Shown piece by piece: positions 2,006 to 40,929 of a DNA stretch of 44,140 bases. Origin of the DNA: Bacteroidales bacterium (GTDB taxonomy: Bacteria > Bacteroidota > Bacteroidia > Bacteroidales > JAOZQN01); the NCBI GenBank assembly GCA_029932195.1, contig JAOZQN010000001.1, positions 10,595 through 54,734 of the forward strand. The letters run 5' to 3'. The notes below the pieces were generated by a model, which was given only the letters and a program-made list of their open reading frames with translations, did no database searches and was not told the DNA's origin. The position numbers and the translations under genes were made by a program. Numbering within the stretch: the first letter of the stretch is position 1; the number at the start of each line of letters is the position of its first letter.

Positions 2006-2461
2006 CTATTCAACATCAACTGCTTCTACTGTATTTTTTTCTTCATCTGCTTTTTTGTCTTCTTCTGTTACTTCTTCTTTAAGTTCGTCGTCTGTTGGAA
2101 ACTTTGTTATCATTCTTTTTTCGTGTTTTGTTAATCTCCATACCTGTGGAACTGGCTTTTTTGAATTTGCATTAAAAGCAATAAAAGCGTATCTACGAGC
2201 AATATAGGATTTATTTACCGCCCTACGATATTCTCCTTTTTGATAGTGAGAACGTGCTTCTTTCTGAATAATATTGGCTTTATGCAAGCAACCAGTATAT
2301 ATTTCATTCTTCTTCACCTTAACTCCTGTTTCCAACATCACAATATTTGTTTTGTTGATAAACGCTTTTGTTTCTATTTTTGTTGGTTTATTATTTTGTG
2401 CAAATAATGTTGCAGAAAATAAAAATACAAAACTTAGTGTAAATACGAGTGTTTTTTTCAT
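2006..2461 (-). CDS. Secreted hypothetical protein
   Basis: Signal peptide MKKTLVFTLSFVFLFSATLFA-Q, helical body, acidic tail. Confidence 0.75.
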   Translation of the reverse strand: MKKTLVFTLSFVFLFSATLFAQNNKPTKIETKAFINKTNIVMLETGVKVKKNEIYTGCLHKANIIQKEARSHYQKGEYRRAVNKSYIARRYAFIAFNANSKKPVPQVWRLTKHEKRMITKFPTDDELKEEVTEEDKKADEEKNTVEAVDVE

Positions 2462-2492
2462 TGTTTCTAAATATTAATTTGTTAATAATAAA

Positions 2493-2903
2493 TTACTTAT
2501 TTCCTTTTTGTTTACCCTTTCTTTTAGGAATTAATCTATTTTCATTATACCATTTTCGTTGGTCATCATCAAGTAGTGCTTTTACGTCTTGGTGCATTTT
2601 GGCTGTTTTTGTTACTAAATTTAACTTCTTATCTGCACCTTTTTTCAGATTATCATTAATTGCTGTCATATCAGCAGGATAGGTTTTCATTAACTCATTA
2701 TGCTTTTTATTTAGCTCTTTAATTTCTTCTCTTAGTGGTTTAGCTTCTTTTTTGTGAGACTCTCTAATTTTCTGAATATCAGCTTTTTGTGTTTCTGTTA
2801 GGTTAGGAATTGGCTCTAATTTTTTACCGTTTTGAGCATCTACACTAATTGTTAAAAACATAAAACTTGCAATTAAAATACTTAAAATTCCAATTTTTTT
2901 CAT
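2493..2903 (-). CDS. Spy/CpxP-like (LTXXQ) periplasmic protein
   Basis: Signal peptide from ATG 2903 (MKKIGILSIL...), LTETQK and LDDDQR motifs around a long helical region. Confidence 0.75.
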   Translation of the reverse strand: MKKIGILSILIASFMFLTISVDAQNGKKLEPIPNLTETQKADIQKIRESHKKEAKPLREEIKELNKKHNELMKTYPADMTAINDNLKKGADKKLNLVTKTAKMHQDVKALLDDDQRKWYNENRLIPKRKGKQKGNK

Positions 2904-3101
2904 AATTTTGTGGTTTTTTGACAGGTAAAACTGTCGATGAATAATTAAAAAAATATTTTTGTAAATATACAAATTCTAACAAAATAAACGTAATAAAAAA
3001 ACATTTATTTTTTTCAATAGGTATAAACTGTGAGAATAATACATATTGATTAGATTTTGTGAAAAATATTTCACAAAAAAAATAAATCTTAATTAAAAAC
3101 A

Positions 3102-4217
3102 ATGAAATACTACATAGTTGCAGGTGAGGCATCTGGCGATTTGCATGGAGCAAGTTTGATGCATAGCATAAAAAAACATGATAAAAATGCTGATTTTCGT
3201 TTTTTTGGAGGCAATTTGATGCAAAAAGAAGGTGGAACGCTTGTAAAACATTTTAAATCAATGGCATTTATGGGTGTTTTTATAGTGATTGCAAATATTC
3301 GCACCATCAAAAAAAATATGAATTTTTGTAAAAATGATATTTTAAATTTTCAGCCAGATATGCTAATTCTCATAGATTTTCCTGGATTTAATTTGAGAAT
3401 AGCTGAATTTGCACACAATAATAATTTGAAGGTATATTATTATATTTCGCCAAAAATTTGGGCATGGAATAAAAAACGAGCTAAAAAAATCAAACTTTAT
3501 ATTGATAAATTATTTGTAATTTTTCCTTTCGAAATAGATTTTTATAAGAATCTTGATTATAAAGTTGAATATTTTGGCAATCCAACCGTTGATGTTGTAG
3601 AAAATGAATTGAAAAATAAAATTACTTTTAATGAATTTATAAAAAAACATGAATTAAATAACAAACCAATTATAGCACTTTTACCCGGAAGTAGAAAACA
3701 AGAAATAAAAAAACTGTTGCCAGTAATGCTTCCTTTAATAGATAAATATAAAGATTATCAATTTGTTATAGGAGGAGTATCTTCGCTAGACAAGGAACTT
3801 TACCAGAGTGTTTACAAAGATATGGACATTAAAATAATTTTTGACCAAACTTATAAATTATTACAACATTCTACTGCTGCCATTGTTACTTCTGGAACAG
3901 CAACTTTGGAAACTGCACTTTTTGATGTTCCACAAGTAGTTTGTTATAAAGCAGGAGCTGTAAGCTATTTTATTGCTATAAATTTTGTAGTAAACATAGA
4001 GTTTTTTTCATTAGTAAACATTATTATGAAAAAAGAAATTATAAAAGAACTTTTACAAAAAAAATTACCAGAACGTATTGATAATGAACTAAATAAAATT
4101 TTAAATAATAATGAATATCGTTCTAAAATGTTAGAAAATTATCAAAAATTAAAGAATACACTTGGCAAAAGTGGTTCGCCAGAAAGAACCGCTAAATTTA
4201 TTGTTTTTAGTCTTTAG
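3102..4217 (+). CDS. lpxB: Lipid-A-disaccharide synthase
   Basis: AGEASGDLHG, IDFPGFN, YYISPKIWAW, LLPGSRKQE, SGTATLE. Confidence 0.97.
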   Translation: MKYYIVAGEASGDLHGASLMHSIKKHDKNADFRFFGGNLMQKEGGTLVKHFKSMAFMGVFIVIANIRTIKKNMNFCKNDILNFQPDMLILIDFPGFNLRIAEFAHNNNLKVYYYISPKIWAWNKKRAKKIKLYIDKLFVIFPFEIDFYKNLDYKVEYFGNPTVDVVENELKNKITFNEFIKKHELNNKPIIALLPGSRKQEIKKLLPVMLPLIDKYKDYQFVIGGVSSLDKELYQSVYKDMDIKIIFDQTYKLLQHSTAAIVTSGTATLETALFDVPQVVCYKAGAVSYFIAINFVVNIEFFSLVNIIMKKEIIKELLQKKLPERIDNELNKILNNNEYRSKMLENYQKLKNTLGKSGSPERTAKFIVFSL

Positions 4218-4260
4218 CTTTTGGCTTTACGCAAAGCGTTGCAAATAAGTATAAAAAAAA

Positions 4261-4324
4261 CACGATAACACGACAACACGACAACACGATAACTCAAAAA
4301 CACAATAACACGATAACTCAAAAA
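4261..4324 (+). repeat. Eight tandem degenerate 8-mers (CACGAYAA / CTCAAAAA) abutting the metF start
   Basis: cacgataa cacgacaa cacgacaa cacgataa ctcaaaaa cacaataa cacgataa ctcaaaaa cc ATG. Confidence 0.85.
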
Positions 4325-4326
4325 CC

Positions 4327-5280
4327 ATGAAAATACCAGAAATATTAAATAATTCAAAAAAAACGCTCTTTTCTTTTGAACTTCTACCACCACTTAAAGG
4401 TGGAAGTATCAAAGATATATACGATGTAATTGATCCTTTAATGGAATTTAAGCCACCCTATATAAATGTAACTTATCATCAGCAAGAAATTGTTTTGAAA
4501 AAGCTAAAAAATGGGCTTTTGCAACAAAAAACTGTCAGAAAACGTCCTGGAACTGTGGCAATGGCAGCGGCTATAAAAAATAAATATAAGGTAGAACTTG
4601 TGCCGCATTTAATTTGTGGAGGATTTTCAAAAGAAGAAACCGAAAATGCTCTGATAGACCTTAATTTTCTGGGTATAAATAATATACTTGCTTTGCGGGG
4701 AGATATTCAAGCAGGGCAAAAAAGTTTTATGAAAGACGACGAAGGGCATAACCATGCTTTGGGACTTGTAAATCAGATTTCGGAACTTAATAAAGGTAAA
4801 TATTTGGACGACGAATTACACAACAAACAAGCAACAGATTTTAGTGTAGGAATAGCTGGTTACCCCGAAAAACACCCAGAAGCTCCAAACATGGAAATGG
4901 ATATTATTTACTTAAAGAAAAAAATTGAAGCAGGTGCAGAATTTATTGTAACACAGATGTTTTTTAACAATAAAAAATATTTTGATTTTGTAAAACTCTG
5001 CAGAGAAAATGATATAAATGTTCCAATTATTCCAGGTCTAAAACCAATTTCTACTGAAAGTCAGCTCAGTATTTTGCCACGAATTTTTAGTATAGATATT
5101 CCCAAAGAATTAACTCGTGAAATAATTAATTGCACAGACAAAAAACACATCAAAGAAGTTGGTATTGAATGGGCTATAAAACAATCCAAAGAACTAAAAA
5201 ACGCAGGAGTTCCTGTAATACATTACTACACAATGGGAAAATCTACTAATATTCAAAAAATCGCAGAACAGGTTTTTTAA
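4327..5280 (+). CDS. metF: Methylenetetrahydrofolate reductase
   Basis: FSFELLPP, PHLICGG, LALRGD, AGYPEKHPE, TQMFF, HYYTM. Confidence 0.96.
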   Translation: MKIPEILNNSKKTLFSFELLPPLKGGSIKDIYDVIDPLMEFKPPYINVTYHQQEIVLKKLKNGLLQQKTVRKRPGTVAMAAAIKNKYKVELVPHLICGGFSKEETENALIDLNFLGINNILALRGDIQAGQKSFMKDDEGHNHALGLVNQISELNKGKYLDDELHNKQATDFSVGIAGYPEKHPEAPNMEMDIIYLKKKIEAGAEFIVTQMFFNNKKYFDFVKLCRENDINVPIIPGLKPISTESQLSILPRIFSIDIPKELTREIINCTDKKHIKEVGIEWAIKQSKELKNAGVPVIHYYTMGKSTNIQKIAEQVF

Positions 5281-5365
5281 TAGTTTTTAGTGAGTTAGGA
5301 AAGAGGTTTTTAGGAGTTAGGAAAATTATTTTAAATATAATTATCATATAATAAAATTTAAAGCA

Positions 5366-5929
5366 ATGAAAATTAATAAATTAGTGGTTTTTCTATTATT
5401 TGTCATGTCGCTTTCTTTTTTTAATTGCAGTAACGAAAAAACAGTTGAATATGATAATGGTATTTATATTGGAGAAATGAAGGGTGATTTGAAAGAAGGA
5501 ATGGGATATTTCATATGGAATGATGGGGAGTATTATAAAGGTGAATGGGAAAATGATAACATAGAAGGGCAAGGAACTTATTCGTATGCAAATGGAGATA
5601 AATATATAGGTAAATTTAAAAATGACAAATTAAATGGATATGGAATTTACAGTTATAAAGATGGAGATAAATATGAAGGTGAATTTATAAATAATTTAAA
5701 AGAAGGTTATGGAAATTATTATTATTCAAATTGGGATATATATGAAGGTGAATGGGAAAAAGGTTTAAAAGAAGGAGATGGTATTTTCTTTTTTGCAAAT
5801 GGAGATAGGTATAATGGAAAATGGGGTAATGATAAACCTAATGGAAAGGGAACTTTCACTTATTCTGATGGAACAATAGAAAAAGGTACTTGGAAAAACG
5901 ATGAGTTAATAAAAGAAATGGATTATTAG
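5366..5929 (+). CDS. MORN-repeat lipoprotein
   Basis: Lipobox-like FFNC, tandem YxGxWxxxxxxGxGxYxYxxGD repeats. Confidence 0.9.
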   Translation: MKINKLVVFLLFVMSLSFFNCSNEKTVEYDNGIYIGEMKGDLKEGMGYFIWNDGEYYKGEWENDNIEGQGTYSYANGDKYIGKFKNDKLNGYGIYSYKDGDKYEGEFINNLKEGYGNYYYSNWDIYEGEWEKGLKEGDGIFFFANGDRYNGKWGNDKPNGKGTFTYSDGTIEKGTWKNDELIKEMDY

Positions 5930-5945
5930 AAATACAGCATTAAAA

Positions 5946-6554
5946 ATGAAAATAAAATCATCATTTTCAAAAAGCAGAGAGGAAATTGACGATGAGTATA
6001 AAATTATACTTTTGGCAAAACTGAATCCTGACAAATTTGAGATACTTTATAATAGGTATTACAAAGATATTTTTGCCTTTATATATACCCGAACCAGCAA
6101 CGAAAATTTAACCGCAGATATTTGTTCACAAGTTTTTTTGAAAGCAATGCTAAATATAAAAGCATATCAAAATAAAGGTGTTCCTTTTTCTGCGTGGCTG
6201 TATAGAATAGCTATAAATGAGGTTAATACATTTTTCAGAAAGACTAAAAGAATAAGAACCATTAATATTGACGATGCAGCAATTGGCTCTTTGGCAGATG
6301 ATATTGATTTGGAAAATAGGGAGGAAAAATATGATTATATCTTAAAGCAAATCAGTTCTTTGCCTGCAAAATCTATGCAATTGATAGAACTTCGCTTTTT
6401 TGAAAAACGCTCTTACGAAGAGATTGCCAAAATACTTAATATATCAGTTTCAAATGCAAAAGTAAAAGTGCATCGTATTATTAGTAAGTTAAAGAAAAAA
6501 GCACAAAATACAGCCGAAAATTTTGCATTTTTGGTAATATCATTTTTTGCATAA
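5946..6554 (+). CDS. ECF RNA polymerase sigma-70 factor
   Basis: Region 2 (DICSQVFLKA, FSAWLYRIAIN) and region 4 (SYEEIAKILNISVSNAKVKVHR). Confidence 0.93.
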   Translation: MKIKSSFSKSREEIDDEYKIILLAKLNPDKFEILYNRYYKDIFAFIYTRTSNENLTADICSQVFLKAMLNIKAYQNKGVPFSAWLYRIAINEVNTFFRKTKRIRTINIDDAAIGSLADDIDLENREEKYDYILKQISSLPAKSMQLIELRFFEKRSYEEIAKILNISVSNAKVKVHRIISKLKKKAQNTAENFAFLVISFFA

Positions 6555-6570
6555 ATAATACATGAAAACA

Positions 6571-6691
6571 GGTTGCATGTTGCATGTTCCGCAAAGCGAT
6601 TATTAATTGCGTTTCATAATTTTATTCTTTGCAAAAAGAAATTCTTTTTTCGCTTTGCGTAACTTGCAACCTGTAATCTGCAACCTGTAAC
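6571..6691. repeat. Inverted heptamer arrays with inner CGCAAAGCG / CGCTTTGCG
   Basis: ggttgcatgttgcatgttc-cgcaaagcg ... cgctttgcg-taacttgcaacctgtaatctgcaacctgtaac. Confidence 0.8.
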
Positions 6692-6704
6692 ACACTCAAA
6701 TAAA

Positions 6705-6983
6705 ATGGATAAATACAAATTCAATAGAAAAAGGAAAAAACTTTCTGATAAAGAAATTGAAAAACACAAAAACTTTAAAAAATTAAGGGCAAATTACGAC
6801 ATAGCCACAAAATTATATAAAATTAGATTAACAGATCGTAAAAACAAGCGTATCTTTCTGTGGGTTTTGATATTAGCACTAATTATTTACCTTATTTTTT
6901 CGTCTAGAGAAGCCACAAAAAACAAAGCACCAGAACAAGATAGTGTGAAAATTGAAAAGAGAATACAAGAAAATCCAAATTAA
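6705..6983 (+). CDS. Small single-pass membrane protein after the ECF sigma gene (possible anti-sigma)
   Basis: Basic N-terminus, one TM helix (IFLWVLILALIIYLIF). The anti-sigma role is inferred from position only. Confidence 0.6.
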   Translation: MDKYKFNRKRKKLSDKEIEKHKNFKKLRANYDIATKLYKIRLTDRKNKRIFLWVLILALIIYLIFSSREATKNKAPEQDSVKIEKRIQENPN

Positions 6984-6990
6984 TACGATT

Positions 6991-7025
6991 TAGTCAAGGC
7001 TTCACATAAAGTTAAGCCTTGACTA
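6991..7025. terminator. Hairpin between convergent genes
   Basis: tagtcaaggctt...aagccttgacta. Confidence 0.7.
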
Positions 7026-7059
7026 TTTAATTTCAAATAACAAAAAAAAATAATATTTT

Positions 7060-7464
7060 TTATTCTCCAAGTTGCATCTTAAGTGCTTCGTCCATAAAGT
7101 CTTTTTTATCCGAAAAAACTACCCATACTCCGTCTGTGTTTTCAAATACTCCATTGCCATTTTTGGAGGTAAATTCCATTGTTTCTGCATTTAATTTAAA
7201 TTTTTCCATATTTTTGAATTCAAATACTTCATCAAACATTTCTGGTGGGGGCAACATTCCTTCTATTTCTGAAAATTTTGCCGTATATACTCCTTCTTCT
7301 GATACTTCTACAAACATAGAATATGATTCATCATGTCCTCCCATTGTGTAATAACCAGCTATTTCAAATTTAGGACTTTTATTTTTAACATTACTGGAAG
7401 TGTTGCATGAATAAATTGTAATAACTGCAAATAGTAATAATAATACGATTGATTTCTTTTTCAT
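7060..7464 (-). CDS. Hypothetical lipoprotein
   Basis: MKKKSIVLLLLFAVITIYS-C lipobox. Confidence 0.75.
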   Translation of the reverse strand: MKKKSIVLLLLFAVITIYSCNTSSNVKNKSPKFEIAGYYTMGGHDESYSMFVEVSEEGVYTAKFSEIEGMLPPPEMFDEVFEFKNMEKFKLNAETMEFTSKNGNGVFENTDGVWVVFSDKKDFMDEALKMQLGE

Positions 7465-16960: not shown

Positions 16961-18289
16961 TTATAAGTTAGCAACAAAATCAGCTATAACACCTTCTAAA
17001 TTAGGAGTTCCAATTTCTTGAAGGTCGTAATAAACTCTTGTATTTGGTTTTTTGATGTTTACAATTCTGTTTAAGTCCATTGGAGTTCCAATAATAACAG
17101 AGTCGCAATCAACAGCATTGATAGTAGTTTCAAGGTCTTTAATTTGCTCGTCACCATATCCCATTGCTGGAAGAAGTGTTCCAATATTTGGATAAATTTT
17201 GAAAGTTTCTGCAAGTTTACCAACTGCATATTCTCTTGGGTCAACAAGTTCTGATGCACCATATTTTTGAGCGGCAATAATACCAGCACCAAGTTTCATT
17301 TCACCGTGAGTAAGTGTTGGTCCATCTTCTACAACAAGAACACGTTTTCCTTTAATTAGCTCAGGATTATCAACTTTTACAGGAGAAGCAGCATCAACAA
17401 CGATAGCTGTTGGATTAGATTCTTGGATATTTTTTCTAACAGTTAAAATATCTTCTGGATTAGCTGTTACAACTTTATTAATAACTACTACGTCAGCAAT
17501 TCTTAGCATAGTTTCGCCAGGATAATAGCTTAGTTCGTGTCCAGGTCTGTGTGGATCAACTACTGTTACTGTTAGGTCTGGTTTGTAGAATGGAAAATCG
17601 TTGTTTCCACCGTCCCAAAGGATAATATCGCAACCATCTGGGTCGTTTTCAGCAGCTCTTACGATTGCTTCATAATCAACACCAGCATAAATTACATTTC
17701 CTCTAACTACGTGAGGCTCATATTCTTCCATTTCTTCAATTGTGCATTTGTGAAGTTTAAGATCTTCTACTGTTGCAAATCGTTGAACTTTTTGTGCTAC
17801 AAGGTCGCCATAAGGCATTGGATGTCTGATAGCTACTACTTTTAAGCCCTTAGCCATAAGTAGTTCAATAATTTTACGAGAAGTTTGACTTTTACCACAA
17901 CCTGTTCTTACAGCTCCCACTGCAATTACTGGTTTTGTGCTTTTAATCATAGTGTCGTCTGTTCCCAGCATTGCAAAATTGCAACCTTCTGCGTTTACAA
18001 GTGCAGCTTTGTTCATAACTACGTTGTAAGGAACGTCGCTGTAAGAGAACGTGCAAGTATCAACTTTTAGTTCTTTGATTAATCTTGGTAAATCTTCTTC
18101 TGCGAAAATAGGTATTCCTTCTGGATAAAGGTCTCCTGCAAGTTCTGCTGGATATTTTCTCCCGTCGATGTCTGGAATTTGTGCAGCAGTAAATGCTACT
18201 ACGTTATACTCTGCATTACCTCTATAAAAGGTATTAAAATTGTGAAAATCTCTACCGGCTGCTCCGATAATAATTACATTCTTTGCCAT
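16961..18289 (-). CDS. COG2403 P-loop NTPase of the cyclic 2,3-diphosphoglycerate synthetase-like family; probable arginine synthetase (ArcE) type
   Basis: GAAGRDFHNFN, AFTAAQIPDI, RTGCGKSQTS, RHPMPYG, EEYEPH, WDGGNNDFPF, EDGPTLTHG, LPAMGY. Start set at ATG 18289 (MAKNVIII). Confidence 0.85.
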   Translation of the reverse strand: MAKNVIIIGAAGRDFHNFNTFYRGNAEYNVVAFTAAQIPDIDGRKYPAELAGDLYPEGIPIFAEEDLPRLIKELKVDTCTFSYSDVPYNVVMNKAALVNAEGCNFAMLGTDDTMIKSTKPVIAVGAVRTGCGKSQTSRKIIELLMAKGLKVVAIRHPMPYGDLVAQKVQRFATVEDLKLHKCTIEEMEEYEPHVVRGNVIYAGVDYEAIVRAAENDPDGCDIILWDGGNNDFPFYKPDLTVTVVDPHRPGHELSYYPGETMLRIADVVVINKVVTANPEDILTVRKNIQESNPTAIVVDAASPVKVDNPELIKGKRVLVVEDGPTLTHGEMKLGAGIIAAQKYGASELVDPREYAVGKLAETFKIYPNIGTLLPAMGYGDEQIKDLETTINAVDCDSVIIGTPMDLNRIVNIKKPNTRVYYDLQEIGTPNLEGVIADFVANL

Positions 18290-18408
18290 AATAATTAAAA
18301 AATTGTTAAAAATTAAACATAAATAATGTTTAATGTTAGAATCAAAAAACAAGAATACCTTATTCAATCATTTTTTAATAATCATTATCCATTTAAAAAA
18401 TTTCAGTG

Positions 18409-18479: not shown

Positions 18480-20678
18480 TTACTGTATCAAATGATTCTT
18501 GCTATCAGCTTTTGCTTTCTCAATTAGTTCTTGGATTTTGTTGTTGCGAATTGTCCATTTTATTAGTTCGTAAACAACATCTTTTATGTTTTTCACATTT
18601 CCTACAATTTCTGGCAAAGTTAAATCTAATTCATAATCTAAAAAACGTTCAAGATTAGAATATTTTGGATATGCCGCAATAATTGCTTTTTCAAGTTGTT
18701 TTTTGTCTTTGCCATTCAATTTTAAAACTTTATTTTCTAATTGTGAGCTATATTTTTCTTCTTCCAGAAAATTTGTTTTTATGTCCGTAACACCATTCAA
18801 AAGTTCGGTTACAATTACGTCTTTGTAGCTTTTATCACATTGTTTTTCTCTTATGCCTTTTTCTTTTCTTCTCATTAATTCGGAATATTCAAAAAAATGA
18901 GGTTCTTTTTGGTTTTTGCATTCATTGCAAATACACGGCACAAGTTTTTCGTAATTTAGTTTTTTATAAGGGCTCAAAAGTTTGTCAAATTCGTTATTTA
19001 TTATGCCCAATAATTCTTTTTTCCTACTTCCGTATATGCGAATAAGAAATTTATTGCTTTTGTCGTAAGTTTCTTTTATTTCTGCCTGTGTGTTTTCAAA
19101 TTCTATGTTTACACCTCTGCTCCAAACAAGTTTTTGGTTTTGTATTCGGCGATGTAGGGCAACAATAATGCGTGGCATAATTCCACGAGGCATGTATTTG
19201 TCGAACTCGTAGGCAAATTGCAAAATTCCAATTTTATTTTCGTGATGCCATGCTTTGTATGGTTGCTCGGCGGGTAAATGTGCCGGAACAACATATTTTT
19301 TTGTGTTGTCAATTTCATACATCAAACCAAAGCGGTGCATTAAATGACTCAGGTTATCAATTTCTGCAAACATTTTGTCGCTATACCAAATTTCTTTAAT
19401 CTGTGTTTCGGAAAGTCTACCTTTGTTCTCTTTTACAATCTTATGATTCAGCACTTCGTAAACAGTATTAACAAGCCAATTGGAATTTAGATAAATACGA
19501 TTTTTGAGTATTTTATCGTCATAATAATGCGTAAAAACACCTATCCTGTTAAAATAATCGCTCAAATAATCAAGTTTTTTAGTGTCTGTTTTGTTTTTTT
19601 TGCAAATTTTAAAATAATGGTCGTAGCTAATAAATTTATCTTTCAGATTAAATAAATCTTTACGGATATTTACCCAAGAAGCAGGCAAAGGATTGCCAAT
19701 ACCAGGCAGTTCGGGGAGCAAATATTTTAGTTTATTTTGTAGTTTAACAATTCTATTGCTATCATTTTTTAAATCAACAGTAACAAAATCGGTGATTAAA
19801 TTTCCAAAACGACCTTTTAGACCGTTCTTATCAATTTGTGGCACATGCTCATGCTTTTTATTGATAACAATTAACAATTTACTATCCTCACCAGCAAGCT
19901 GTTCTATTGTATTTAACCAATATGCAAAATCGGTTCTCTCTTCACGAGTGTCGTCTATAAGCACATAAAAAGATTTTTTGCTAAAAAAGATTTGATGTGT
20001 TCCATGATACAATTTTTGCCCACCAAAATCCCACAAATTGGCATACATAGTTTGTTTGCCTCGCAAATGGTGCATGACTTCAAAATCCCATTTTGTAACC
20101 TCAATACCAAGAGTTGTGTCTTTGTCTTTTGGTAATTCTGCTGTTTTATCTTTTATTTTTACGGCAAAACTTGTTTTTCCAGCTCCTCCTTCTCCTATAA
20201 TAAGCAACTTAGTTTCAAATAGATACTCAACATTTCCAATTATTAGTTGTTCCAGATAATTTTTTACGGCATTACGCCCTTTTTCTAATATTTCAAAGGG
20301 TGGATTCTTCATAGGATTGTTTGTCAAAACATCGTCCCAGTTTTCTATATTTTTCAAGTTATTGAAAACATTATACGGTAATTCTGAAATATTATTATCA
20401 CTTAAATCGAGACCTCTCAGTCTTTTTAAATCTTTTAAAAATGAAATATCTGAAATTTCATTATCCCTTAAATAAAGACTTGTCAAGCTTTTTAACTCTT
20501 TTAAAAACTCAATAATCCTACCTAAGTCTTTAATTTTACAATTATATAAACTTAATTTGCTTACCTCATTTTTTTCGTTAAAAATATAATTTCTTGTATT
20601 CCATTCAATCTTGTCATTCCGTTCAAGTTCAACACCTAATTTTTGCTCTATTTGTTTTATAATTTGTAAGTTAGTCAT
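18480..20678 (-). CDS. Roco protein: short LRR - Roc GTPase - COR - Cys4 motif - C-terminal EAD1-like domain
   Basis: LxxLxLxxNxI repeats, GEGGAGKTS, TTLGI, WDFGGQ, YWL, PCICNEC...CDKS. Last 80 aa (LNGKDKKQLEKAIIAAYP...VYELIKW...IQELI) fit the EAD1 pattern. Confidence 0.88.
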   Translation of the reverse strand: MTNLQIIKQIEQKLGVELERNDKIEWNTRNYIFNEKNEVSKLSLYNCKIKDLGRIIEFLKELKSLTSLYLRDNEISDISFLKDLKRLRGLDLSDNNISELPYNVFNNLKNIENWDDVLTNNPMKNPPFEILEKGRNAVKNYLEQLIIGNVEYLFETKLLIIGEGGAGKTSFAVKIKDKTAELPKDKDTTLGIEVTKWDFEVMHHLRGKQTMYANLWDFGGQKLYHGTHQIFFSKKSFYVLIDDTREERTDFAYWLNTIEQLAGEDSKLLIVINKKHEHVPQIDKNGLKGRFGNLITDFVTVDLKNDSNRIVKLQNKLKYLLPELPGIGNPLPASWVNIRKDLFNLKDKFISYDHYFKICKKNKTDTKKLDYLSDYFNRIGVFTHYYDDKILKNRIYLNSNWLVNTVYEVLNHKIVKENKGRLSETQIKEIWYSDKMFAEIDNLSHLMHRFGLMYEIDNTKKYVVPAHLPAEQPYKAWHHENKIGILQFAYEFDKYMPRGIMPRIIVALHRRIQNQKLVWSRGVNIEFENTQAEIKETYDKSNKFLIRIYGSRKKELLGIINNEFDKLLSPYKKLNYEKLVPCICNECKNQKEPHFFEYSELMRRKEKGIREKQCDKSYKDVIVTELLNGVTDIKTNFLEEEKYSSQLENKVLKLNGKDKKQLEKAIIAAYPKYSNLERFLDYELDLTLPEIVGNVKNIKDVVYELIKWTIRNNKIQELIEKAKADSKNHLIQ

Positions 20679-21085: not shown

Positions 21086-21118
21086 AACTTTGCCAAAGTT
21101 TAAAACTTTGGCAAAGTT
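21086..21118. repeat. REP-like palindrome or terminator after ribBA
   Basis: aactttgccaaagttt-a-aaactttggcaaagtt; relative at 27482-27512. Confidence 0.75.
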
Positions 21119-21167
21119 TGTTACTCGACAATATAAACTTGAAGCAACACTAGGTCGTAAAATGGAA

Positions 21168-22394
21168 TTAAATTTTATCGTAGTTATATTTTTTCAAATT
21201 GTGTCCCATTTTTACCTTTTTAGTTTTCATATAAAAAGCATTGTGTATATTGGGCTTAATCTCTATTGGTGCAATTTCTGTAACTTCCAGACCATAGCCT
21301 TGTAGTCCTATTTTTTTAACAGGATTATTTGTTAATAATTTCATTTTCTGCACACCAACACTTCTAAGTATTTGAGCACCAACCCCATAATCTCGCTCGT
21401 CATCTTCAAAACCAAGTTTATGATTTGCCTCCACAGTGTCGTATCCTTCCTCTTGAAGTTTGTATGCTTTAATTTTATTTGACAAACCAATCCCTCTACC
21501 TTCCTGATTCATATAAATAACTACGCCTTTTCCTGCTCTATCAATTTGTCGCATAGCTTCGTGAAGTTGGTCTCCGCAGTCGCAACGCTTTGAACCAAAA
21601 ATATCACCAGTAACACAAGACGAATGAACTCTCACAAGTATTGACTCATTTTCATTCCATTCACCTTTTATTAGTGCAACATGCTCTAAACCATTTGATT
21701 TCTGTAAAAAAGGTATCAAATTAAAATCACCAAAATCGGTTGGCATTTTTACTTCTACGCCTTTTTTTATTAGACTTTCGGTTTCCAGACGATATTTTAT
21801 CAAATCTTTGATAGAAATTATTTTCAAATCAAATTTTTCTGCTACTTTGTATAGGTCTGGAAGGCGAGCCATTGTGCCGTCGTCGTTCATTATTTCCACC
21901 AAAGTTCCTCCGGCTTTTAGTCCTGCCATAACAGCCAAATCCACAGCCGCCTCTGTATGACCAGCTCTACGAATAACTCCTTGTTTTTGTGCTTTTAGCG
22001 GAAAAATATGACCAGGACGTGCTAAATCGTCTGCTTTAGTTACCTCATCTACAAGAGAATTGATAGTTTTGGCACGGTCGTATGTAGAAATTCCTGTTGT
22101 GCAACCTTGCCCAATTAAATCTACCGAAACGGTAAATGGAGTTTCGTGTAAAGCAGTATTTTTACCTACCATTAGCTCTAAATCAAGCTGTTTGCATCGG
22201 TCTTCTGGAATTGCCAAACAGACTAGCCCCCTACCCTCTTTTATCATAAAATTAACAATTTCGGGAGTAACAAGCTCTGCCGCAGCAATAAAATCGCCTT
22301 CATTTTCTCTGTCTTCGTCATCAACAACAATAATTATTTTACCGTTTTTGATGTCTTCAATTGCTTCTGGTATTGTGTTTAATTTATTTTTCAT
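21168..22394 (-). CDS. ribBA: Bifunctional DHBP synthase / GTP cyclohydrolase II
   Basis: [57 protein letters not shown]. Confidence 0.97.
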
Positions 22395-22564: not shown

Positions 22565-23137
22565 ATGGCACAACCACATAAAAAGAAAGAATTACTAACA
22601 TTAAATGAATATCTTGAATTAGAAGAAACATCTGAAATAAAACACGAATTTTATTATGGCGAAATATTTTCTATGGCAGGAACTACACGTGTTCACAACG
22701 AAATTGAAGGAAATATAACTTTTAAGTTAAAAAAAGAATTGAAAAATATTAAAAAAGAACATTTTATATACTCCGAGTCAGTAAAAATAGAAATAACTAA
22801 AAATTATCATTACGCATATCCCGATGTTGTTGTTAGTTGTAGCGAAAAAGAGGACGACCCACTCTCAATAAAACATCCTATTTTAATTGTAGAAGTTTTA
22901 TCCGACAGCACTCGTGAATATGATATGAATAAAAAATTTGAATTTTATAAACAAATTCCAAGCTTGAAACATTATTTACTTATTGAACAAAATCAATATT
23001 TTATAAATTCTTATACAAAACAAAATGATTTTTGGTATCATAAATCTTATTCTAAAAAAGAAGACTTGGTAGAACTTTTGCATTTAGATATAAAAGTATC
23101 AGTAAAAGATATTTACGACAATGTTCAATTTGTTTGA
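22565..23137 (+). CDS. Uma2 (DUF820) family PD-(D/E)XK endonuclease-like protein
   Basis: KHEFYYGEIFSMAG..H, YPDVVV, P..IVEVLSDST..YD..KK..Y. Confidence 0.93.
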   Translation: MAQPHKKKELLTLNEYLELEETSEIKHEFYYGEIFSMAGTTRVHNEIEGNITFKLKKELKNIKKEHFIYSESVKIEITKNYHYAYPDVVVSCSEKEDDPLSIKHPILIVEVLSDSTREYDMNKKFEFYKQIPSLKHYLLIEQNQYFINSYTKQNDFWYHKSYSKKEDLVELLHLDIKVSVKDIYDNVQFV

Positions 23138-32028: not shown

Positions 32029-32093
32029 ACAGACTAACTTTTAATGAATTGAAATTTTATAATAAAAACTAATTTTAAAACTTGAAAAATAAA

Positions 32094-34742
32094 ATGACCG
32101 ACGAACAAATTTTAAAGAAATTAGAAAAACAATTAAATATTAAATTTGAAAAAGTTAATAAGATAAATCTTTTTGATAAAAAACCATGTTTTGAAATTAA
32201 TAATGGTAATATTACAGGTCTTCTTATCAGAAATGTAATTATTGAAGATTTAAGTTTGATAAGTAAATTGGTTAATTTAGAAGAACTTTATTTGTCAGAT
32301 AATCAAATAAAAAACATTTCAGATTTAAAAATTTTAAAAAATATTTCAGAACTTGATTTGTCAAATAATCAAATAAAAGATATTTCTATTTTACAAAAAT
32401 TGGAAAAAATTACATTACTTGATTTGTCAAATAATCAAATAAAAGATATTTCTTTTTTAGAAAATTTAAAAAAGATCGAAGTTCTTTTTTTATCAGATAA
32501 TCAAATAAAAGATATTTCGGTTTTGCAAAATTTGAAAAATCTTATGGTATTTTATTTGTCAGATAATCAAATAAAAAACATTTCAGATTTAAAAATTTTA
32601 AAAAATATTTCAGAACTTGATTTGTCAAATAATCAAATAAAAGATATTTCTTTTTTACAAAATTTAAAAAACATTAAACTTCTTGATTTATATAGTAATC
32701 AAATAAAAGATATATCAGTATTAAAAAATTTATTAAAAAAAGAAAATTCTTTTGATAAAGATTTTTTTGATTTTAATTTTAATTTAAAAAACAATCCCTT
32801 AAAAACGCCTCCTAAAGAACTTGCTGAACTTGGCAGAGATGCTATAAACGAATATTTTGAACATATAGAACTTGGTTACACCGTTTTGAAAGAGGCAAAA
32901 TTAATAATAATTGGCGAAGCTGGTGCTGGCAAAACTACTTTTGCCAAAAAACTTATAAACGCTAATGCCAAAATGCCAGAACAAAACGAAACTACACTCG
33001 GCATAGATGTTTATAATTGGCAATTTGAAACAAATTTGAATAATACAGAAAGTCCAAAATTCAATGCTAAATTGTGGGACTTCGGTGGGCAAGATATTTA
33101 TCATGGCACGCATCAGTTCTTTTTTAGTCAAAAATCGCTTTACATTTTAATTTCTGATGCTCGAGACCAAAGAACAGATTTTAATTATTGGCTAAATACG
33201 GTGGAACAATTAACGGGAGAGAATAGTATTCTTCTGGTTTTGTTTAACAAAAGAGAAGGACGAAATTGGAAATTAGAAGATGAATACGGATTAAATAGAC
33301 GTTTTGAAGGAATGATAAAAAAAGTTATTTCAATAGATTTATCAAATATAGATGAAATACCGCATTTGCAACAGCAAATACAAAAAGAAATAACAAATTT
33401 GCCACAAATAGATTATCGCTTACCAACAACTTGGGTAAATATTCGCAAAGAACTTAGCAAGCTGACAGACAGATATATTAGCTACGAAAAATTTAGAGAT
33501 ATTTGTAATCAAAATAATATAACAAATCCCAAAGTTATAGAAATTATTAGCAAATTATTTACAAATATAGGCGTTTTTACTCATTTTATAGAAGAAGAAA
33601 CAAATTTGCAAGATATAATATTTCTTGATTCTAATTGGCTTACAAAAACAGTTTATTCATTGTTAGACAATCAGATAGTAATAGAAAATAAAGGAAAAAT
33701 TACACGCACAGAAGTAAATCAAATATTAAAAACAGAAGAATTATATTTTGATGTAGATAAATTTATAGAACTATTAAAAAAATTTAGTTTAATATATAAA
33801 ATAAATGGTAGTCAAAATTATATTGTTCCATACCATTTGAAAGCCGGGCAGCCTTACAAAAAATGGAAATATATAGATGACAAAAATGTTTATATTTTTC
33901 GTTATTTATTTGATAATTATATGCCAAAAGGAATTATGGTAAAACTTATTGTTGCTTTGCATCAATATATTTACGACCACGAACTTGTGTGGGCAAGAGG
34001 TGTAAATATCTCTAATTCAGTGAATAAACCCGATACTTTTGCGGAAATTATAGAAACTTATGGACGAGAAAATCGTTTTGATATAAGAATTTATGGTAAA
34101 AATCAAAAAGACCTTTTGCAAATAATAATTTATCATTTCGATAAAATATTAAAACCATTCACAAAACTAACTCACGAAAAAGAAGTGCCATGCAATTGTG
34201 AGACTTGCATTACAAGTGATAATCCACATTTTTTTAAATATAAGTCTTTGTTAAAACGAAAAGAAAAAGGAAAAACTACAATTGAATGTGATAAAAGTTT
34301 TGAAGATACTAATATAAAAGAATTGCTTGAAGGAATTGATTTTTCGGAACTGCGAAGTTTATTAATAAATAAAAAATTTGAGGAATTTAAACAACAAATA
34401 TCTCAACGCTTTTCCGATATTTCGTATCAAATACATAAAAAGACTGTTTCGGAAAGTTTTTTTCATAGCAATTTTCATACTATTTTAGCAGAGAATGGTT
34501 TAAAACCAATTTCAGAAGAAAGCACAAACGACGGCAGAATAGATTTACACCTTTCTATTGATAAAACAAAATATTTGTTTGAACTAAAATTAAAAGAAAG
34601 CAAAGATGACGGTATGAAACAAATTCATGAAAAAAAATATTATAACAAATTTTTGGGACAGTTCGATAAAATAATCTTAATAGCTATTAGTTTTAGCACA
34701 AAAACACGAAATATAGATAAAATAGAATATGAAATTTTATAA
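32094..34742 (+). CDS. Roco protein: LRR array - Roc GTPase - COR - Cys4 motif - C-terminal PD-(D/E)XK nuclease (PDDEXK_9-like)
   Basis: Seven regular 22-aa LRRs, GEAGAGKTT, WDFGGQ, PCNCETC...CDKS, then SESFFH...EE...GRIDL...YLFELK...QIHEKKYY. Start set at ATG 32094 by alignment with the paralog. Confidence 0.9.
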   Translation: MTDEQILKKLEKQLNIKFEKVNKINLFDKKPCFEINNGNITGLLIRNVIIEDLSLISKLVNLEELYLSDNQIKNISDLKILKNISELDLSNNQIKDISILQKLEKITLLDLSNNQIKDISFLENLKKIEVLFLSDNQIKDISVLQNLKNLMVFYLSDNQIKNISDLKILKNISELDLSNNQIKDISFLQNLKNIKLLDLYSNQIKDISVLKNLLKKENSFDKDFFDFNFNLKNNPLKTPPKELAELGRDAINEYFEHIELGYTVLKEAKLIIIGEAGAGKTTFAKKLINANAKMPEQNETTLGIDVYNWQFETNLNNTESPKFNAKLWDFGGQDIYHGTHQFFFSQKSLYILISDARDQRTDFNYWLNTVEQLTGENSILLVLFNKREGRNWKLEDEYGLNRRFEGMIKKVISIDLSNIDEIPHLQQQIQKEITNLPQIDYRLPTTWVNIRKELSKLTDRYISYEKFRDICNQNNITNPKVIEIISKLFTNIGVFTHFIEEETNLQDIIFLDSNWLTKTVYSLLDNQIVIENKGKITRTEVNQILKTEELYFDVDKFIELLKKFSLIYKINGSQNYIVPYHLKAGQPYKKWKYIDDKNVYIFRYLFDNYMPKGIMVKLIVALHQYIYDHELVWARGVNISNSVNKPDTFAEIIETYGRENRFDIRIYGKNQKDLLQIIIYHFDKILKPFTKLTHEKEVPCNCETCITSDNPHFFKYKSLLKRKEKGKTTIECDKSFEDTNIKELLEGIDFSELRSLLINKKFEEFKQQISQRFSDISYQIHKKTVSESFFHSNFHTILAENGLKPISEESTNDGRIDLHLSIDKTKYLFELKLKESKDDGMKQIHEKKYYNKFLGQFDKIILIAISFSTKTRNIDKIEYEIL
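32287..32651 (+). repeat. Exact 101-bp direct repeat within the LRR array (32287-32387 = 32551-32651)
   Basis: Offset 264 bp = 4 x 66-bp LRR units. Confidence 0.85.
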
Positions 34743-37141: not shown

Positions 37142-39709
37142 ATGGAATTTATATCAGGAGCAAAATATATTAGAGCAGATTTTCATTTACACACAAAATC
37201 AGATACTGAATTTAATTATAAAAGTGAAGAAAATGATTTTGTAAAAAACTATGTTCAAAAATTAATAGAGGAAAATATTCAACTTGCGGTTATTACAAAT
37301 CACAATAAATTTGATTTAAAACAATACGATGGCTTAAGAAAAAAAGCAAAGAAAAAAGGCATTTTTCTTTTACCTGGAATTGAATTAAATATAAACGAAG
37401 GAAAAACAGGTTTACATACACTGATTGTGTTTGACAATAAAAAGTGGTTAGTTGGCAACGAGGATTTTATAAATGATTTTATTACAAAAACAGCTCCAAC
37501 AGATAATCATGATTTTAAATATAAAAACGGACTTTCTCAACATAGTTTAATTCAAACTATTGAACTTCTAAATACATTTAAAAAAAAATATTTTATTGTA
37601 TTAGCACATGTTTCGTCTGATAATGGATTATTAAAAGAAGTGAATGGGAAAAAAATTGAACAGCTTGGAAAAGATCCTATTTTCAGGAAAAATGTTCTTG
37701 GATTTCAGGCAGTTAAAAATGGAGATTTTGATAATTTAAAACTATGGCTTAAAAAAAAGCTTCCTGCTTTTGTTGAAGGTTCTGACCCTAAAAGTATTGA
37801 ACAAATAGGAAAAGGAAAGAAATGCTACCTAAAATTAAGCGATTTGAATTTTGATGCTGTTAAATTTGCTTTGCAATATCACGAGAGTAGAGTTGTCCGA
37901 GAAATTCCAAAACAACAAAACGCTTATATTAAATCGGTTGAGTATGTTGGAGGCAAACTTGATGGTAAAATAATCCACCTAAGTCCATCAATGAATAATA
38001 TTATTGGGATACGAGGAAGTGGAAAATCATCAATTTTGGAAACTATACGGTATGCTTTGAATATTAACTTAGATAAGAAAATTACTGCAGACGAGAATTA
38101 TAAAAATTCAATTATAAATAAAACTCTTGGAGGAGGTGGCAAAATTTTACTTAAAATACAAAATAATAATAATATTTATAATATTGAAAAAGGAACAACT
38201 GGAATAGCAAGATGCATTGAAAAACCCGACTTAAATATAAAATCATTAATAAAAAGTTTTTATTTTGGACAAAAAGACTTATCAAGAATAGGTGAGACAA
38301 AACAAAGTAATAAAGAATTTATATATCGTATAATTGGGAAAATTGATAATGATCAAAAACTAAAATCTGATGAGATTTCAAATAAAATAAGAGCGTTATT
38401 ATCAAAAATTATTCAAATTGAAAAAAAGATAGAAATAATACCAGATATAAAAACTCAAATTGCTGATTTAAAACAAGATATTGAAAATATAGAAAAATTT
38501 GGACTTAAAGAAAAATTAGAAAAAGAAATAAATTTTAGTCAAGATATAAATAAAATAAAATATATAAAAAAAGAAATTAAAATAACAATTAATAATTTTG
38601 AAGAGTTCTTAGATAATCAAAATGAAGATTATAATTATTTAAAAGCCTATAAATCAAAAGAAAATAAACCTTTTTTTAACGAAATTTTCACAATACTTGA
38701 TAATATTTCTATTATTCAAAATTCATTTAAAGAAAAAAAGTTAGAAATAGAAAATAAATTTTCAAAAGTAGAAAGTATAGAAAATAAATTATTGGAATTA
38801 ATCGAAAAACTAAACGAGGTATTTGCAAAAAGTCAAAGAGAAAGTAGTATTTCTGCAGAAGATATTAAAAATTATCAAGAATTTCAGACTAAATTGTCTA
38901 ATAAAAAACTTCTCCTAACAGAATTGGAAAAACTAATTCCTAAAAAAAAGTTATTAAGAAAAGAATTAAAGACAAAACTAAACGAGGTTAAAGAAAGCTG
39001 GCAAGAAGAATTTAATATTATAAAATCAAAAATAGATACAGTAAATTCAAAACAAAAAAAACTAAAAATAATTATTAAATTTAAACAAAATAAAAGAGCA
39101 ATAGAAGATTTTATTTTTAATTTTTCACATAATATAAGGAGAGAAAATATAAAAATGTTGATAAAAAACAATAATGATTTAATTGATTTATTTGAAAAAT
39201 TTGAAAATAAATCTGATTTAAAAATCAATCAAATTGATGATATAAAAAATCAATTTTATAAAAACTTACCTAATTTCCTTACTTTCCGAGTTCCAGATAC
39301 TTTTGAAATAGAATACAATAGAAAACCTTTAAAAAATCATTCTCTTGGGCAACGAGCATCTGCATTAATTGTTTTTTTATTTTCGTTACGTAACAACGAT
39401 TTAATTTTAATTGACCAACCAGAAGATGACTTAGACAGTCAAACTGTTTATAATGAAGTAATTACATTAATTAAAAACATGAAAAGCTCAACACAATTTA
39501 TTTTTGCGACACACAACCCTAATATTCCTGTATTGGGCGATTGTGAGCAAGTTTTAGCTTGCGATTATGACAATAAAAACGAAAAAATTAATATTAATTC
39601 AGGTGGTATTGATAAAAAAATAATACAACAAAAAATTATAAATATCATGGAAGGTGGTGAACAAGCTTTTGATGAACGAAAAAATAAATACACACAATGG
39701 AATCATTAG
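37142..39709 (+). CDS. PHP phosphoesterase + SMC/ABC-type coiled-coil ATPase (TrlF/Ppl-like)
   Basis: DFHLHT, ITNHN, PGIE, AH, GSDPK; Walker A GIRGSGKS, signature SLGQR, Walker B IDQPEDDLD, ATHN. Confidence 0.88.
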   Translation: MEFISGAKYIRADFHLHTKSDTEFNYKSEENDFVKNYVQKLIEENIQLAVITNHNKFDLKQYDGLRKKAKKKGIFLLPGIELNINEGKTGLHTLIVFDNKKWLVGNEDFINDFITKTAPTDNHDFKYKNGLSQHSLIQTIELLNTFKKKYFIVLAHVSSDNGLLKEVNGKKIEQLGKDPIFRKNVLGFQAVKNGDFDNLKLWLKKKLPAFVEGSDPKSIEQIGKGKKCYLKLSDLNFDAVKFALQYHESRVVREIPKQQNAYIKSVEYVGGKLDGKIIHLSPSMNNIIGIRGSGKSSILETIRYALNINLDKKITADENYKNSIINKTLGGGGKILLKIQNNNNIYNIEKGTTGIARCIEKPDLNIKSLIKSFYFGQKDLSRIGETKQSNKEFIYRIIGKIDNDQKLKSDEISNKIRALLSKIIQIEKKIEIIPDIKTQIADLKQDIENIEKFGLKEKLEKEINFSQDINKIKYIKKEIKITINNFEEFLDNQNEDYNYLKAYKSKENKPFFNEIFTILDNISIIQNSFKEKKLEIENKFSKVESIENKLLELIEKLNEVFAKSQRESSISAEDIKNYQEFQTKLSNKKLLLTELEKLIPKKKLLRKELKTKLNEVKESWQEEFNIIKSKIDTVNSKQKKLKIIIKFKQNKRAIEDFIFNFSHNIRRENIKMLIKNNNDLIDLFEKFENKSDLKINQIDDIKNQFYKNLPNFLTFRVPDTFEIEYNRKPLKNHSLGQRASALIVFLFSLRNNDLILIDQPEDDLDSQTVYNEVITLIKNMKSSTQFIFATHNPNIPVLGDCEQVLACDYDNKNEKININSGGIDKKIIQQKIINIMEGGEQAFDERKNKYTQWNH

Positions 39710-40929
39710 AATTATTAGAAATAATACAAAAAGGTGAAAATAGTTATGTTCAATTTAAAAGAAGAGTAAAAGATGCTCATTCTATTTCTCAAGAAATGTC
39801 GGCATTTGCAAATTACAAAGGAGGAACAATTATTATTGGAGTGGAGGATAAAACAGGAGAATTAAATGGTTTGACTTTTGCCGAAATAAATGAAAATAAT
39901 AAAACTCTGTCAAATGCGGCAAGTGATAATGTAAAACCAAGTTTATTTATTCATACAGAACAAGTTACAATAAATAATCATACACTTATTGTTGCAAAAA
40001 TACCAGAAGGAATAAATAAACCTTACAAAGACAAAAAAGGAGCTATTTGGTTAAAAAATGGCTCAGACAAAAGACGAGTTACTTCTAATGAGGAACTTGC
40101 AAGATTATTACAAGACAGTAAAAATATTTATGCCGATGAGCAAATAATTATAAATTCTTCTATAAATGATATAGACTATCATAATGTAAAATATTTTATT
40201 TTACAATCTAACCGAAATGATTTTGAAGATATTATAAATAAAATTGAAACTGAAATAACTCCATACAGTTTAAAAAAACACGAACTTGACAATTTTTTAG
40301 AACGAATAAAATTTAATCAACCAATTGTAAAATTGCTTAATAATTTACGAATTTTAGCAAATAATGAATTTACTTTAGCCGGTTTATTATTATTTTCGGA
40401 TAAAACACAATACTATCGTCCTATGTTTACCATAGATTGTGTTACTTTTCCTGAAAATACAACATCTGTAAATACATATTCCGATACAGAAAATCTCACT
40501 GGAAATTATTATGATATTTTTGAAGCAACAATGAATTTTGTAAAAAGAAACCTCAAAAAAATCCCTTCAAATAAAGGTTTTAATAGTAATGCAAAAACTG
40601 AAATTCCCCTTGAAGTATTTGAAGAACTTATTATTAATGCCCTTATTCATCGAAATTATTTTATCAATTCAACAATTAAAATTTTCATATTTCCAAATAG
40701 AATAGAAATAATAAGTCCAGGAGTTTTGCCAAATTCTTTAACTATAGAAAATATTTTAAGTGGCATTGCAATACAAAGAAATCCTAATTTACATTCATTA
40801 GCAAAATATATACTACCATACAAAGGATATGGAAGTGGTATTAAAAGAGCTATAAATTTATATCCCGAGATTGAATTTGAAAATAATTTATCAAAAGAAC
40901 AATTTGTTGCAACAATAAAGCGAAGATAA
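39697..40929 (+). CDS. Schlafen/AlbA_2 domain + HATPase_c_4 protein
   Basis: GENSYVQFK, SAFANYKGGTIIIGVED, ELIINALIHRNY, IEIISPG.LP, RNP, GSGI. Overlaps the upstream gene by 13 bp. Confidence 0.88.
   Translation: MESLELLEIIQKGENSYVQFKRRVKDAHSISQEMSAFANYKGGTIIIGVEDKTGELNGLTFAEINENNKTLSNAASDNVKPSLFIHTEQVTINNHTLIVAKIPEGINKPYKDKKGAIWLKNGSDKRRVTSNEELARLLQDSKNIYADEQIIINSSINDIDYHNVKYFILQSNRNDFEDIINKIETEITPYSLKKHELDNFLERIKFNQPIVKLLNNLRILANNEFTLAGLLLFSDKTQYYRPMFTIDCVTFPENTTSVNTYSDTENLTGNYYDIFEATMNFVKRNLKKIPSNKGFNSNAKTEIPLEVFEELIINALIHRNYFINSTIKIFIFPNRIEIISPGVLPNSLTIENILSGIAIQRNPNLHSLAKYILPYKGYGSGIKRAINLYPEIEFENNLSKEQFVATIKRR

Follow-up and report, generated by a model that had tools for sequence, protein, structure and literature searches.

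An EAD1 adaptor at the C-terminus of a Bacteroidales Roco protein and a candidate EAD1-CHAT partner in the same genome

The DNA considered here, hereafter the window, is a stretch of 44,140 nucleotides from a Bacteroidales genome (assembly GCA_029932195.1, contig JAOZQN010000001.1), and the gene in question is a Roco gene on its minus strand whose product ends in an EAD1 domain. Taken as a whole, the findings are best explained if the product is a Roco sensor-switch whose output is an EAD1 adaptor that recruits, in trans, an EAD1-CHAT protease encoded elsewhere in the genome. We give this explanation about an even chance (probability roughly 0.5), and the same holds for the recruitment step itself, which is plausible. 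The gene and its domains are as follows.

18480..20678, minus strand: the whole gene, LRR-Roc-COR-A-COR-B-EAD1, 732 amino acids (aa), coordinates including the stop codon; from the open reading frame (ORF) list, translation and Pfam.
20259..20678, minus strand: N-terminal cap motif and short leucine-rich repeat (LRR) array, aa 1-140 (Pfam LRR_4/LRR_8 at aa 63-112).
19854..20210, minus strand: Roc GTPase domain, aa 157-275 (Pfam Roc, 5.1e-22; motif alignment of 8 paralogs).
19278..19685, minus strand: COR-A domain, aa 332-467 (Pfam PF16095, 3e-31).
18792..19226, minus strand: COR-B domain, aa 485-629 (Pfam PF25497, 1.1e-34).
18498..18722, minus strand: EAD1 adaptor domain, aa 653-727 (Pfam PF19955, 8.7e-11).

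All of these domains (LRR, Roc, COR-A, COR-B and EAD1) exceed their Pfam cut-offs, and Roc is followed directly by COR, which makes the protein a Roco protein. An earlier note on this DNA, made from the letters alone, had called it a Roco and had matched its last 80 aa to the EAD1 pattern. Both calls hold, the first through Pfam Roc, COR-A and COR-B, the second through a hidden Markov model search in which the tail scored 42.6 bits, where the curated cut-off of PF19955 is 24.2 (hmmscan; 47 bits in the six-frame scan of the assembly described below). The region 18480-18722 that encodes the tail is the 3' end of the minus-strand ORF 18480-20678, whose 732-codon frame is open and free of stops, and the linker ahead of EAD1 (aa 630-652) is poorly conserved. 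Other EAD models of Pfam, including EAD11, gave zero matches on the protein at E up to 1, NCBIfam gave only sub-threshold GTPase and internalin-LRR matches, and the P-loop (G1, GEGGAGKT), the switch-I Thr and the G3 motif DFGGQ of Roc are all intact. The product is almost certainly an intact sensor-switch protein that belongs to the AP-GTPase (Roco) class, with an adaptor at the position where paralogs carry an effector.

The assembly (6.73 Mb in 944 contigs, 97.6% complete) was scanned in six frames with PF19955, which gave five matches over the cut-off, one of them on the window's contig. A broader profile, made from 34 EAD1 sequences and searched without any filters against the 31,032 six-frame ORFs of at least 50 aa, added no further EAD1 domain; the next best match had an E-value of 0.67. 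The EAD1 carriers are four Roco proteins, i.e., that of the window and those of contigs C904, C736, and C301, and one free EAD1-CHAT protein, also on C736. Those outside the window are as follows.

Contig C904: EAD1 protein, LRR-Roc-COR-EAD1.
Contig C736: EAD1 protein, LRR-Roc-COR-EAD1.
Contig C736, 60 nucleotides after the Roco-EAD1 gene: EAD1 protein with EAD1 (1e-11) at the N-terminus, then CHAT (1.5e-11).
Contig C301: EAD1 protein, a Roc-COR-EAD1-CHAT fusion of 920 aa.

The free EAD1-CHAT of C736 is a caspase-like protease with HFSGHG and NACYS motifs (His and Cys, respectively; PADLOC 'chat', 3.9e-12), and it is the only free EAD1-tagged effector in the assembly. At E up to 0.001, the Roco proteins of C736 and C301 had no PADLOC match. 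EAD1 thus occurs in one genome both on a core NTPase and on an effector encoded separately, as the EAD concept has it. The earlier note had made its reading depend on another EAD1 protein in the genome, and four more were found, one of them the free EAD1-CHAT. It had also seen no EAD1 partner in the window, and in this it was right: neither the six-frame PF19955 scan nor the 34-sequence EAD1 profile with filters off found a second EAD1 there, and Pfam found none in the neighbouring genes. An EAD1 copy in an adjacent operon gene, which is frequent and not obligatory in the EAD concept, is absent beside the window gene and present at C736.

On the explanation that we favour, the LRRs of the window protein would bind an invader-derived or stress ligand, after which Roc-COR would rearrange in a nucleotide-dependent manner or oligomerise and so cluster the EAD1 tails. 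The clustered tails would recruit the EAD1-CHAT protease in trans via EAD1-EAD1 contacts, and the protease would be activated by proximity. A weaker step is that the protease would act on the single gasdermin of the genome, resulting in membrane pores and abortive cell death; gasdermin is proposed as the target because its gene directly follows the cis-fused Roc-COR-EAD1-CHAT on C301. The homotypic pairing of EADs, which the earlier note had taken as established, is more modestly a published proposal from domain architecture and genome context and not an experimental result; in the passages of that paper used here, EADs are proposed to bridge a core component to effectors, with further EAD copies elsewhere in the genome (Kaur 2020, eLife 9:e52696, PMC7159879).

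A number of observations weigh against recruitment of EAD1-CHAT by the window protein. For this protein PADLOC-DB v2 gave no family (E up to 1). The G4 motif of its Roc domain reads NKKH, without the Asp of NKxD (aa about 281-284, in the region 19830-19860 of the window), which leaves guanine-nucleotide switching uncertain. The EAD1 of the CHAT protein shares 35% identity with the window tail and 29% with the tail of the neighbouring C736 Roco, and sequence yields no specificity signal for a pairing of the window EAD1 with the CHAT EAD1. In the part of the work consulted (Kaur 2020, PMC7159879), neighbouring EADs tend to be most closely related to one another; this is not seen at C736. The same-genus genome G001 (99% complete) has no EAD1, although it gave eight matches to the Roco query; the best of these has 56% identity over aa 57-634 and a different tail, and there is no ortholog of the window gene. 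The gene is thus young and dispensable at the genus level, because G001 has Roco paralogs without EAD1. Partners may also be unseen, as the assembly is fragmented (944 contigs) and the end of C736 interrupts the EAD1-CHAT gene.

The closest relative of the window protein found in the searches is the C736 Roco, with 67% identity overall. Identity between the two is 85% in Roc, 82% in COR-A, 74% in COR-B and 53% in EAD1, and it falls to 40% in the N-terminal cap with the LRRs and to 23% in the linker before EAD1. The window and C736-Roco tails come out as sisters (99/89) in a maximum-likelihood tree built from 34 EAD1 sequences, in which the tails of the CHAT protein, C904, and C301 each group with metagenomic sequences outside this pair. 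The window tail is therefore a diverged copy of the tail beside the EAD1-CHAT gene; the tree and the identities do not point to the CHAT EAD1 as its closest relative.

The distribution of EAD1 over the genome, with four of the five domains on Roco proteins, fits equally well with a different arrangement, in which EAD1 joins Roco to Roco and the window protein is an extra sensor that uses the protease of its partner, similar to sensor/helper NLR pairs. We consider this unlikely. The partners would be the C301 Roc-COR-EAD1-CHAT fusion or other Roco-EAD1 paralogs, and the protease would be used in cis. In agreement with such pairing COR is a dimerisation module (Kaur 2020, PMC7159879, in a passage citing Gotthardt 2008), the C301 fusion has both EAD1 and CHAT beside the only gasdermin, and the window EAD1 is closest to the EAD1 of another Roco. 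On the other hand the window/C736 and C301/C904 EAD1 pairs are located in different parts of the tree, and the window and C301 domains are only 24-27% identical. Moreover, EAD1 is the only docking module that can be recognised in the free EAD1-CHAT, and in the published model, as set out in the passages used, EADs bridge the core component to effectors (Kaur 2020).

The immediate surroundings of the window gene bear on whether it has an output at all. The ribBA gene (21168-22394) lies upstream on the same strand across a spacer of 489 nucleotides, and 112 nucleotides downstream is an ORF of about 440 codons (16961-18367), which has no Pfam domain that passes the threshold and a cobW match that stays below it, and is 76-88% identical in four related genomes. 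The latter is a conserved housekeeping-type gene, because of this identity across relatives; that it is a hidden effector or partner was rejected, as it is conserved in this way and has no EAD1. Genes for MoxR, vWA, VMAP/iSTAND, GAP1 or proteases were not found by Pfam beside the Roco-EAD1 gene; scanned were 21 of the window's 37 ORFs that reach 100 aa, which covered 7060-43894 minus a few overlapping ORFs. With no effector neighbour and with flanks of ribBA and a housekeeping-type gene, it is conceivable that the gene is a recent duplicate being lost, or a decoy, i.e., a short-LRR copy of the C736 gene that lost its neighbouring effector when it moved and either is left with no output or merely titrates EAD1 partners. 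The LRR array of the window protein has about three repeats and that of the C736 paralog is much longer, the G4 motif is degenerate, and the same-genus genome has neither an ortholog nor EAD1, all of which would fit with decay. We nevertheless consider this quite unlikely. The 732-codon frame is open, the N-terminal cap, P-loop, switch-I Thr and DFGGQ are intact, and the EAD1 is still well above the Pfam cut-off. Truncation at the 5' end was rejected: the gene is whole, because the N-terminal cap is common to the C736 paralog and the 489-nucleotide spacer upstream has no LRR remnants. NKKH is found in the window and C736 proteins, the two paralogs with nuclease tails have NKKE or NKRE, three others have NKxD, and NKKH can also be read in the translation of the nearest relative in other species (L027, see below); the NKKH/NKKE/NKRE variant is therefore a clade trait and not decay, because nuclease-tailed paralogs and L027 have it. 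Finally, published LRR+AP-GTPase+COR+EAD1 genes are, in the part of the source data used here, mostly likewise without an adjacent EAD1 gene (PMC8195603). Separately, the nucleotide specificity may differ in the NKKH/NKKE/NKRE sub-clade of Roco paralogs.

The fold of the tail was predicted with AlphaFold2 for the last 93 residues from an alignment of 34 sequences. The model is a small helical bundle (mean pLDDT, the per-residue confidence score, 79.1) of five helices, at residues 17-30, 34-45, 49-52 (short), 59-72, and 76-86 of the piece, and is as such a small, non-enzymatic, all-helical domain of the kind that the EAD concept describes. In a VIA-align comparison with 48,161 representative chains the best match was 4uz0_B, the CARD of ARC (Z 6.6, root-mean-square deviation (rmsd) 3.8, 74 residues aligned), and 41 of the 50 best rows were CARD, Death, DED or Pyrin entries by our own count of titles; a bacterial death-like domain from Azospirillum (8ss1_A) followed with Z 6.0, rmsd 2.9, and 73 residues aligned. 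The observations on the other side extend to this fold as well. All VIA-align Z scores are at most 6.6, which is modest, and a match with a value below 8 (about 13 in the case of helical bundles) may be due to a common arrangement. Foldseek against PDB gave nothing at E of 0.001 or less (best E 4.0, with CARD and Death among the weak rows), and the profile of 34 EAD1 sequences found no Death-fold chain among PDB sequences at E up to 10, its best match (E 0.031) being a designed repeat protein that is not credible. Five helices are predicted, compared with six in the Death-fold bundle, and Pfam gave no Death, CARD or DED match on the window protein. In the text consulted, bDLD1-3 and not EAD1 are classed as Death-superfamily homologs, and helical EADs are accorded 'structural parallels' only (Kaur 2021). 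The Death-like tail of the earlier note is thus retained as far as the predicted fold resembles CARD and Death domains, and is qualified by the low Z scores, the empty Foldseek result and the published exclusion of EAD1 from the Death homologs. The structural matches give real but not conclusive support for a Death-like topology of the EAD1 tail, and there is none at the sequence level.

Death-fold domains often form homo-filaments. As such domains are the nearest structural neighbours of the predicted tail, it could be speculated that EAD1 works here without an EAD1 partner, as an autoinhibitory lid on Roc-COR, as a self-polymerising output, or as a dock for a protein without EAD1. The occurrence of up to seven tandem EAD1 domains in one metagenomic protein (P0003) suggests likewise that self-association can be an end in itself. 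Such a role is very unlikely in our view, as EAD1 is non-enzymatic and spread over many effector types, which fits with an adaptor, and as a matching EAD1-effector exists in the genome.

The possible end-point of signalling is given by contig C301 (L007 301-7142), where the Roc-COR-EAD1-CHAT fusion is followed by a gasdermin gene of 266 aa (3075-3875; PADLOC bGSDM, 7.7e-52). The assembly has one gasdermin and two CHAT domains in total. In the parts of the preprint used here, 43 of 50 bacterial gasdermins adjoin protease genes, of which CHAT is the commonest, and a gasdermin-cleaving protease of Runella is labelled 'Roc-COR-CHAT' (Johnson et al., 2021, 10.1101/2021.06.07.447441). That the window protein also signals to gasdermin is rather doubtful. 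It is tempting to speculate further that the LRR-Roco sensors of the window, C736, and C904, which differ in their LRR arrays, share EAD1 as a common plug and feed a few EAD1-CHAT proteases and through them the single gasdermin, in an inflammasome-like network built on Roco and not on STAND/NLR ATPases; such a network is somewhat more doubtful still. If it exists, the window gene would act as an independent sensor connected to an executioner that several sensors have in common, a wiring of many sensors to one protease to gasdermin for which no experimental demonstration in bacteria appears in the portions of the literature covered here. If recruitment in trans is correct, the orphan Roco-EAD1, the adjacent Roco-EAD1/EAD1-CHAT pair, the cis-fused Roc-COR-EAD1-CHAT and the one gasdermin would together make a compact and direct test of EADs as homotypic adaptors, and also of whether Roco GTPases feed a shared caspase-gasdermin death module as animal NLRs do. 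Beyond the gasdermin gene, C301 carries an unassigned gene of 348 aa, then a gene for an AAA_5/MoxR-like ATPase (4913-5932), a gene for a weakly matched VWA_CoxE protein (5913-7142) and LRR proteins, and may thus combine a gasdermin system with a MoxR-vWA pair.

A phmmer search with the Roc-COR part gave eight Roco paralogs in the genome. Three of them end in EAD1, one in EAD1 with CHAT, two in PDDEXK_9 and one in transmembrane helices, and the tail of one is unassigned. Matches of homologs to the window protein end at about aa 630-650, i.e., at the end of COR-B, and only the C736 paralog extends through the tail. A relative of 57% identity carries EAD11 at the same position. Among the best 120 of 1286 homologs (E of 1e-30 or less) EAD1 is present in two, both of this genome, EAD11 in seven, EAD7 and EAD8 in one each, TIR in 24, and PDDEXK_9 in six (own count). 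Similarly, relatives of the C301 fusion in other Bacteroidota have EAD11 between COR and a CHAT-like part. The nearest relative among species representatives is encoded by a Bacteroidales metagenome-assembled genome (L027, JAOZRY010000235.1, 3-1937); it has 70% identity over Roc-COR and ends in transmembrane helices. To judge from these comparisons, the Roco family is one with a conserved switch core and fast-changing sensor and output ends.

EAD1 itself is widespread. An exhaustive profile search gave 4141 EAD1 representatives at E of 0.001 or less, and the result of a word-indexed search with the tail alone (aa 630-732), which returned only the query among 375 candidates, reflects a limit of sensitivity and not rarity. 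EAD1 co-occurs with CHAT, trypsin, TIR, NYN, phosphoesterase and SAVED effectors, and 14 of the 25 EAD1 proteins scanned join it to an effector or to an NTPase/repeat core. One of the five related genomes scanned has EAD1, there carried by a ParA-like ATPase. Two metagenomic proteins (P0003 and P0004) consist, as far as Pfam shows, of EAD1 in six to seven tandem copies with weak EAD7, and may be adaptor hubs or decoys.

The window holds a further Roco gene, which the earlier note had overlooked.

32082..34742, plus strand: second Roco paralog, LRR-Roc-COR-A-COR-B-PDDEXK_9 (phmmer over genome ORFs; Pfam).

In this protein PDDEXK_9, a PD-(D/E)XK nuclease domain (6e-16), occupies the place of EAD1. 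A near-twin is found on contig C96 (L009 3019-5451). Two further Roco genes are at 362-2857 on contig C917 (L011) and at 6027-8888 on contig C780 (L010); one of these has a Lys-rich linker and a hydrophobic, transmembrane-like C-terminus, and in the other the tail, some 180 aa long, matches nothing in Pfam. The second Roco gene of the window has a defence-type gene pair within a few kb, encoding a protein with a PHP domain and an SMC/AAA_21-type ATPase (37142-39709, plus strand; PADLOC 'Ppl', 2.2e-37) and a Schlafen AlbA_2 and HATPase_c_4 protein (39697-40929, plus strand), the start of which is overlapped by the former gene. Just past ribBA on the other side is a putative endonuclease of the Uma2 family (22565-23137, plus strand; Pfam 4.8e-27, PADLOC candidate PDC-S03 4.1e-26). 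At the head of the 489-nucleotide spacer, just past the ribBA stop, is a near-perfect inverted repeat with two arms of about 15 nucleotides (about 21086-21119), which resembles a terminator hairpin. As for synteny, the same-genus contig ends 216 nucleotides short of the ortholog of the downstream gene, and in genome G019 the upstream neighbour differs and is not ribBA. After the Roco gene of L027 there are ORFs at 2105-3637, 3693-4871, and 4858-5736, which by eye and with no family search look like an ATPase with a PD-(D/E)XK-like protein, an AAA-type ATPase and an HNH-like protein, i.e., defence-island-like.

What is already known is the architecture and the adaptor idea, both from comparative genomics. 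The LRR-AP-GTPase-COR conflict class was described by Kaur, Iyer, Burroughs and Aravind (2021, eLife 10:e70394, PMC8195603), and in the parts of that paper used here 24 or more different domains occur in its C-terminal slot, among them TIR, DRHyd, caspase, trypsin, FGS 'or different EADs', with many paralogs per genome. The link of Roco with EAD, which the earlier note had put forward, is therefore already in print, as LRR+AP-GTPase+COR+EAD1 is tabulated in Figure 6-source data 1, mostly with no EAD1 gene in the printed neighbourhood. Over the 60 of its 67 places covered here, every EAD1 row is from cyanobacteria, and those of Bacteroidetes are COR+EAD11 and COR+EAD11+CASPASE. The earlier note had described EADs as adaptors of ternary systems of the VMAP/iSTAND/GAP type; the gene is not part of such a system and is in the separate AP-GTPase (Roco) class. 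Among the literature matches listed for bacterial Roco in phage defence there is no experimental study of a Roco-EAD protein, and of those listed for EAD1 the two Kaur papers alone bear on the subject. What is new is EAD1 proper on a Bacteroidota-type Roco, i.e., in a new lineage, together with a concrete candidate partner.

Compared with known systems, the genome resembles the AP-GTPase systems of Kaur 2021, as far as the parts consulted describe them, in that N-terminal LRRs are followed by a Roc and COR core (LRR + AP-GTPase + COR) and a variable C-terminal slot, with several differently tailed paralogs. It differs from the EAD1 rows of that work, all cyanobacterial over the 60 of 67 places covered, in having EAD1 on a Bacteroidota-type Roco. 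Like EAD1 in the sections of Kaur 2020 used, the window tail is predicted to be small, all-helical and non-catalytic, and a second copy is present on a caspase-like effector in the genome; unlike in the EAD1 systems described there, the effector copy is in another operon and the core is a Roco and not a vWA-MoxR ternary system or GAP1. The C301 locus, with Roc-COR-(EAD1)-CHAT and then bGSDM, is similar to the gasdermin system of Runella zeae as portrayed in the passages at hand, and the window gene differs from that system in having neither CHAT nor a gasdermin neighbour. As a small helical domain that may couple a sensor NTPase to a protease, the tail is like the CARD-like domains of gasdermin defence (Wein et al., 2023 preprint, PMC10312443, the consulted parts of which do not mention EADs or Roc) and like metazoan Death-fold adaptors, but it differs from CARD and Death adaptors by having no sequence relationship to them, five predicted helices and a Z score of 6.6 at best. 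Finally, unlike the Chlorobium tepidum Roco/LRRK2 family the window protein has no kinase, has NKKH at G4 and carries a C-terminal adaptor, while it shares with this family the order LRR-Roc-COR and intact G1 and G3 motifs.

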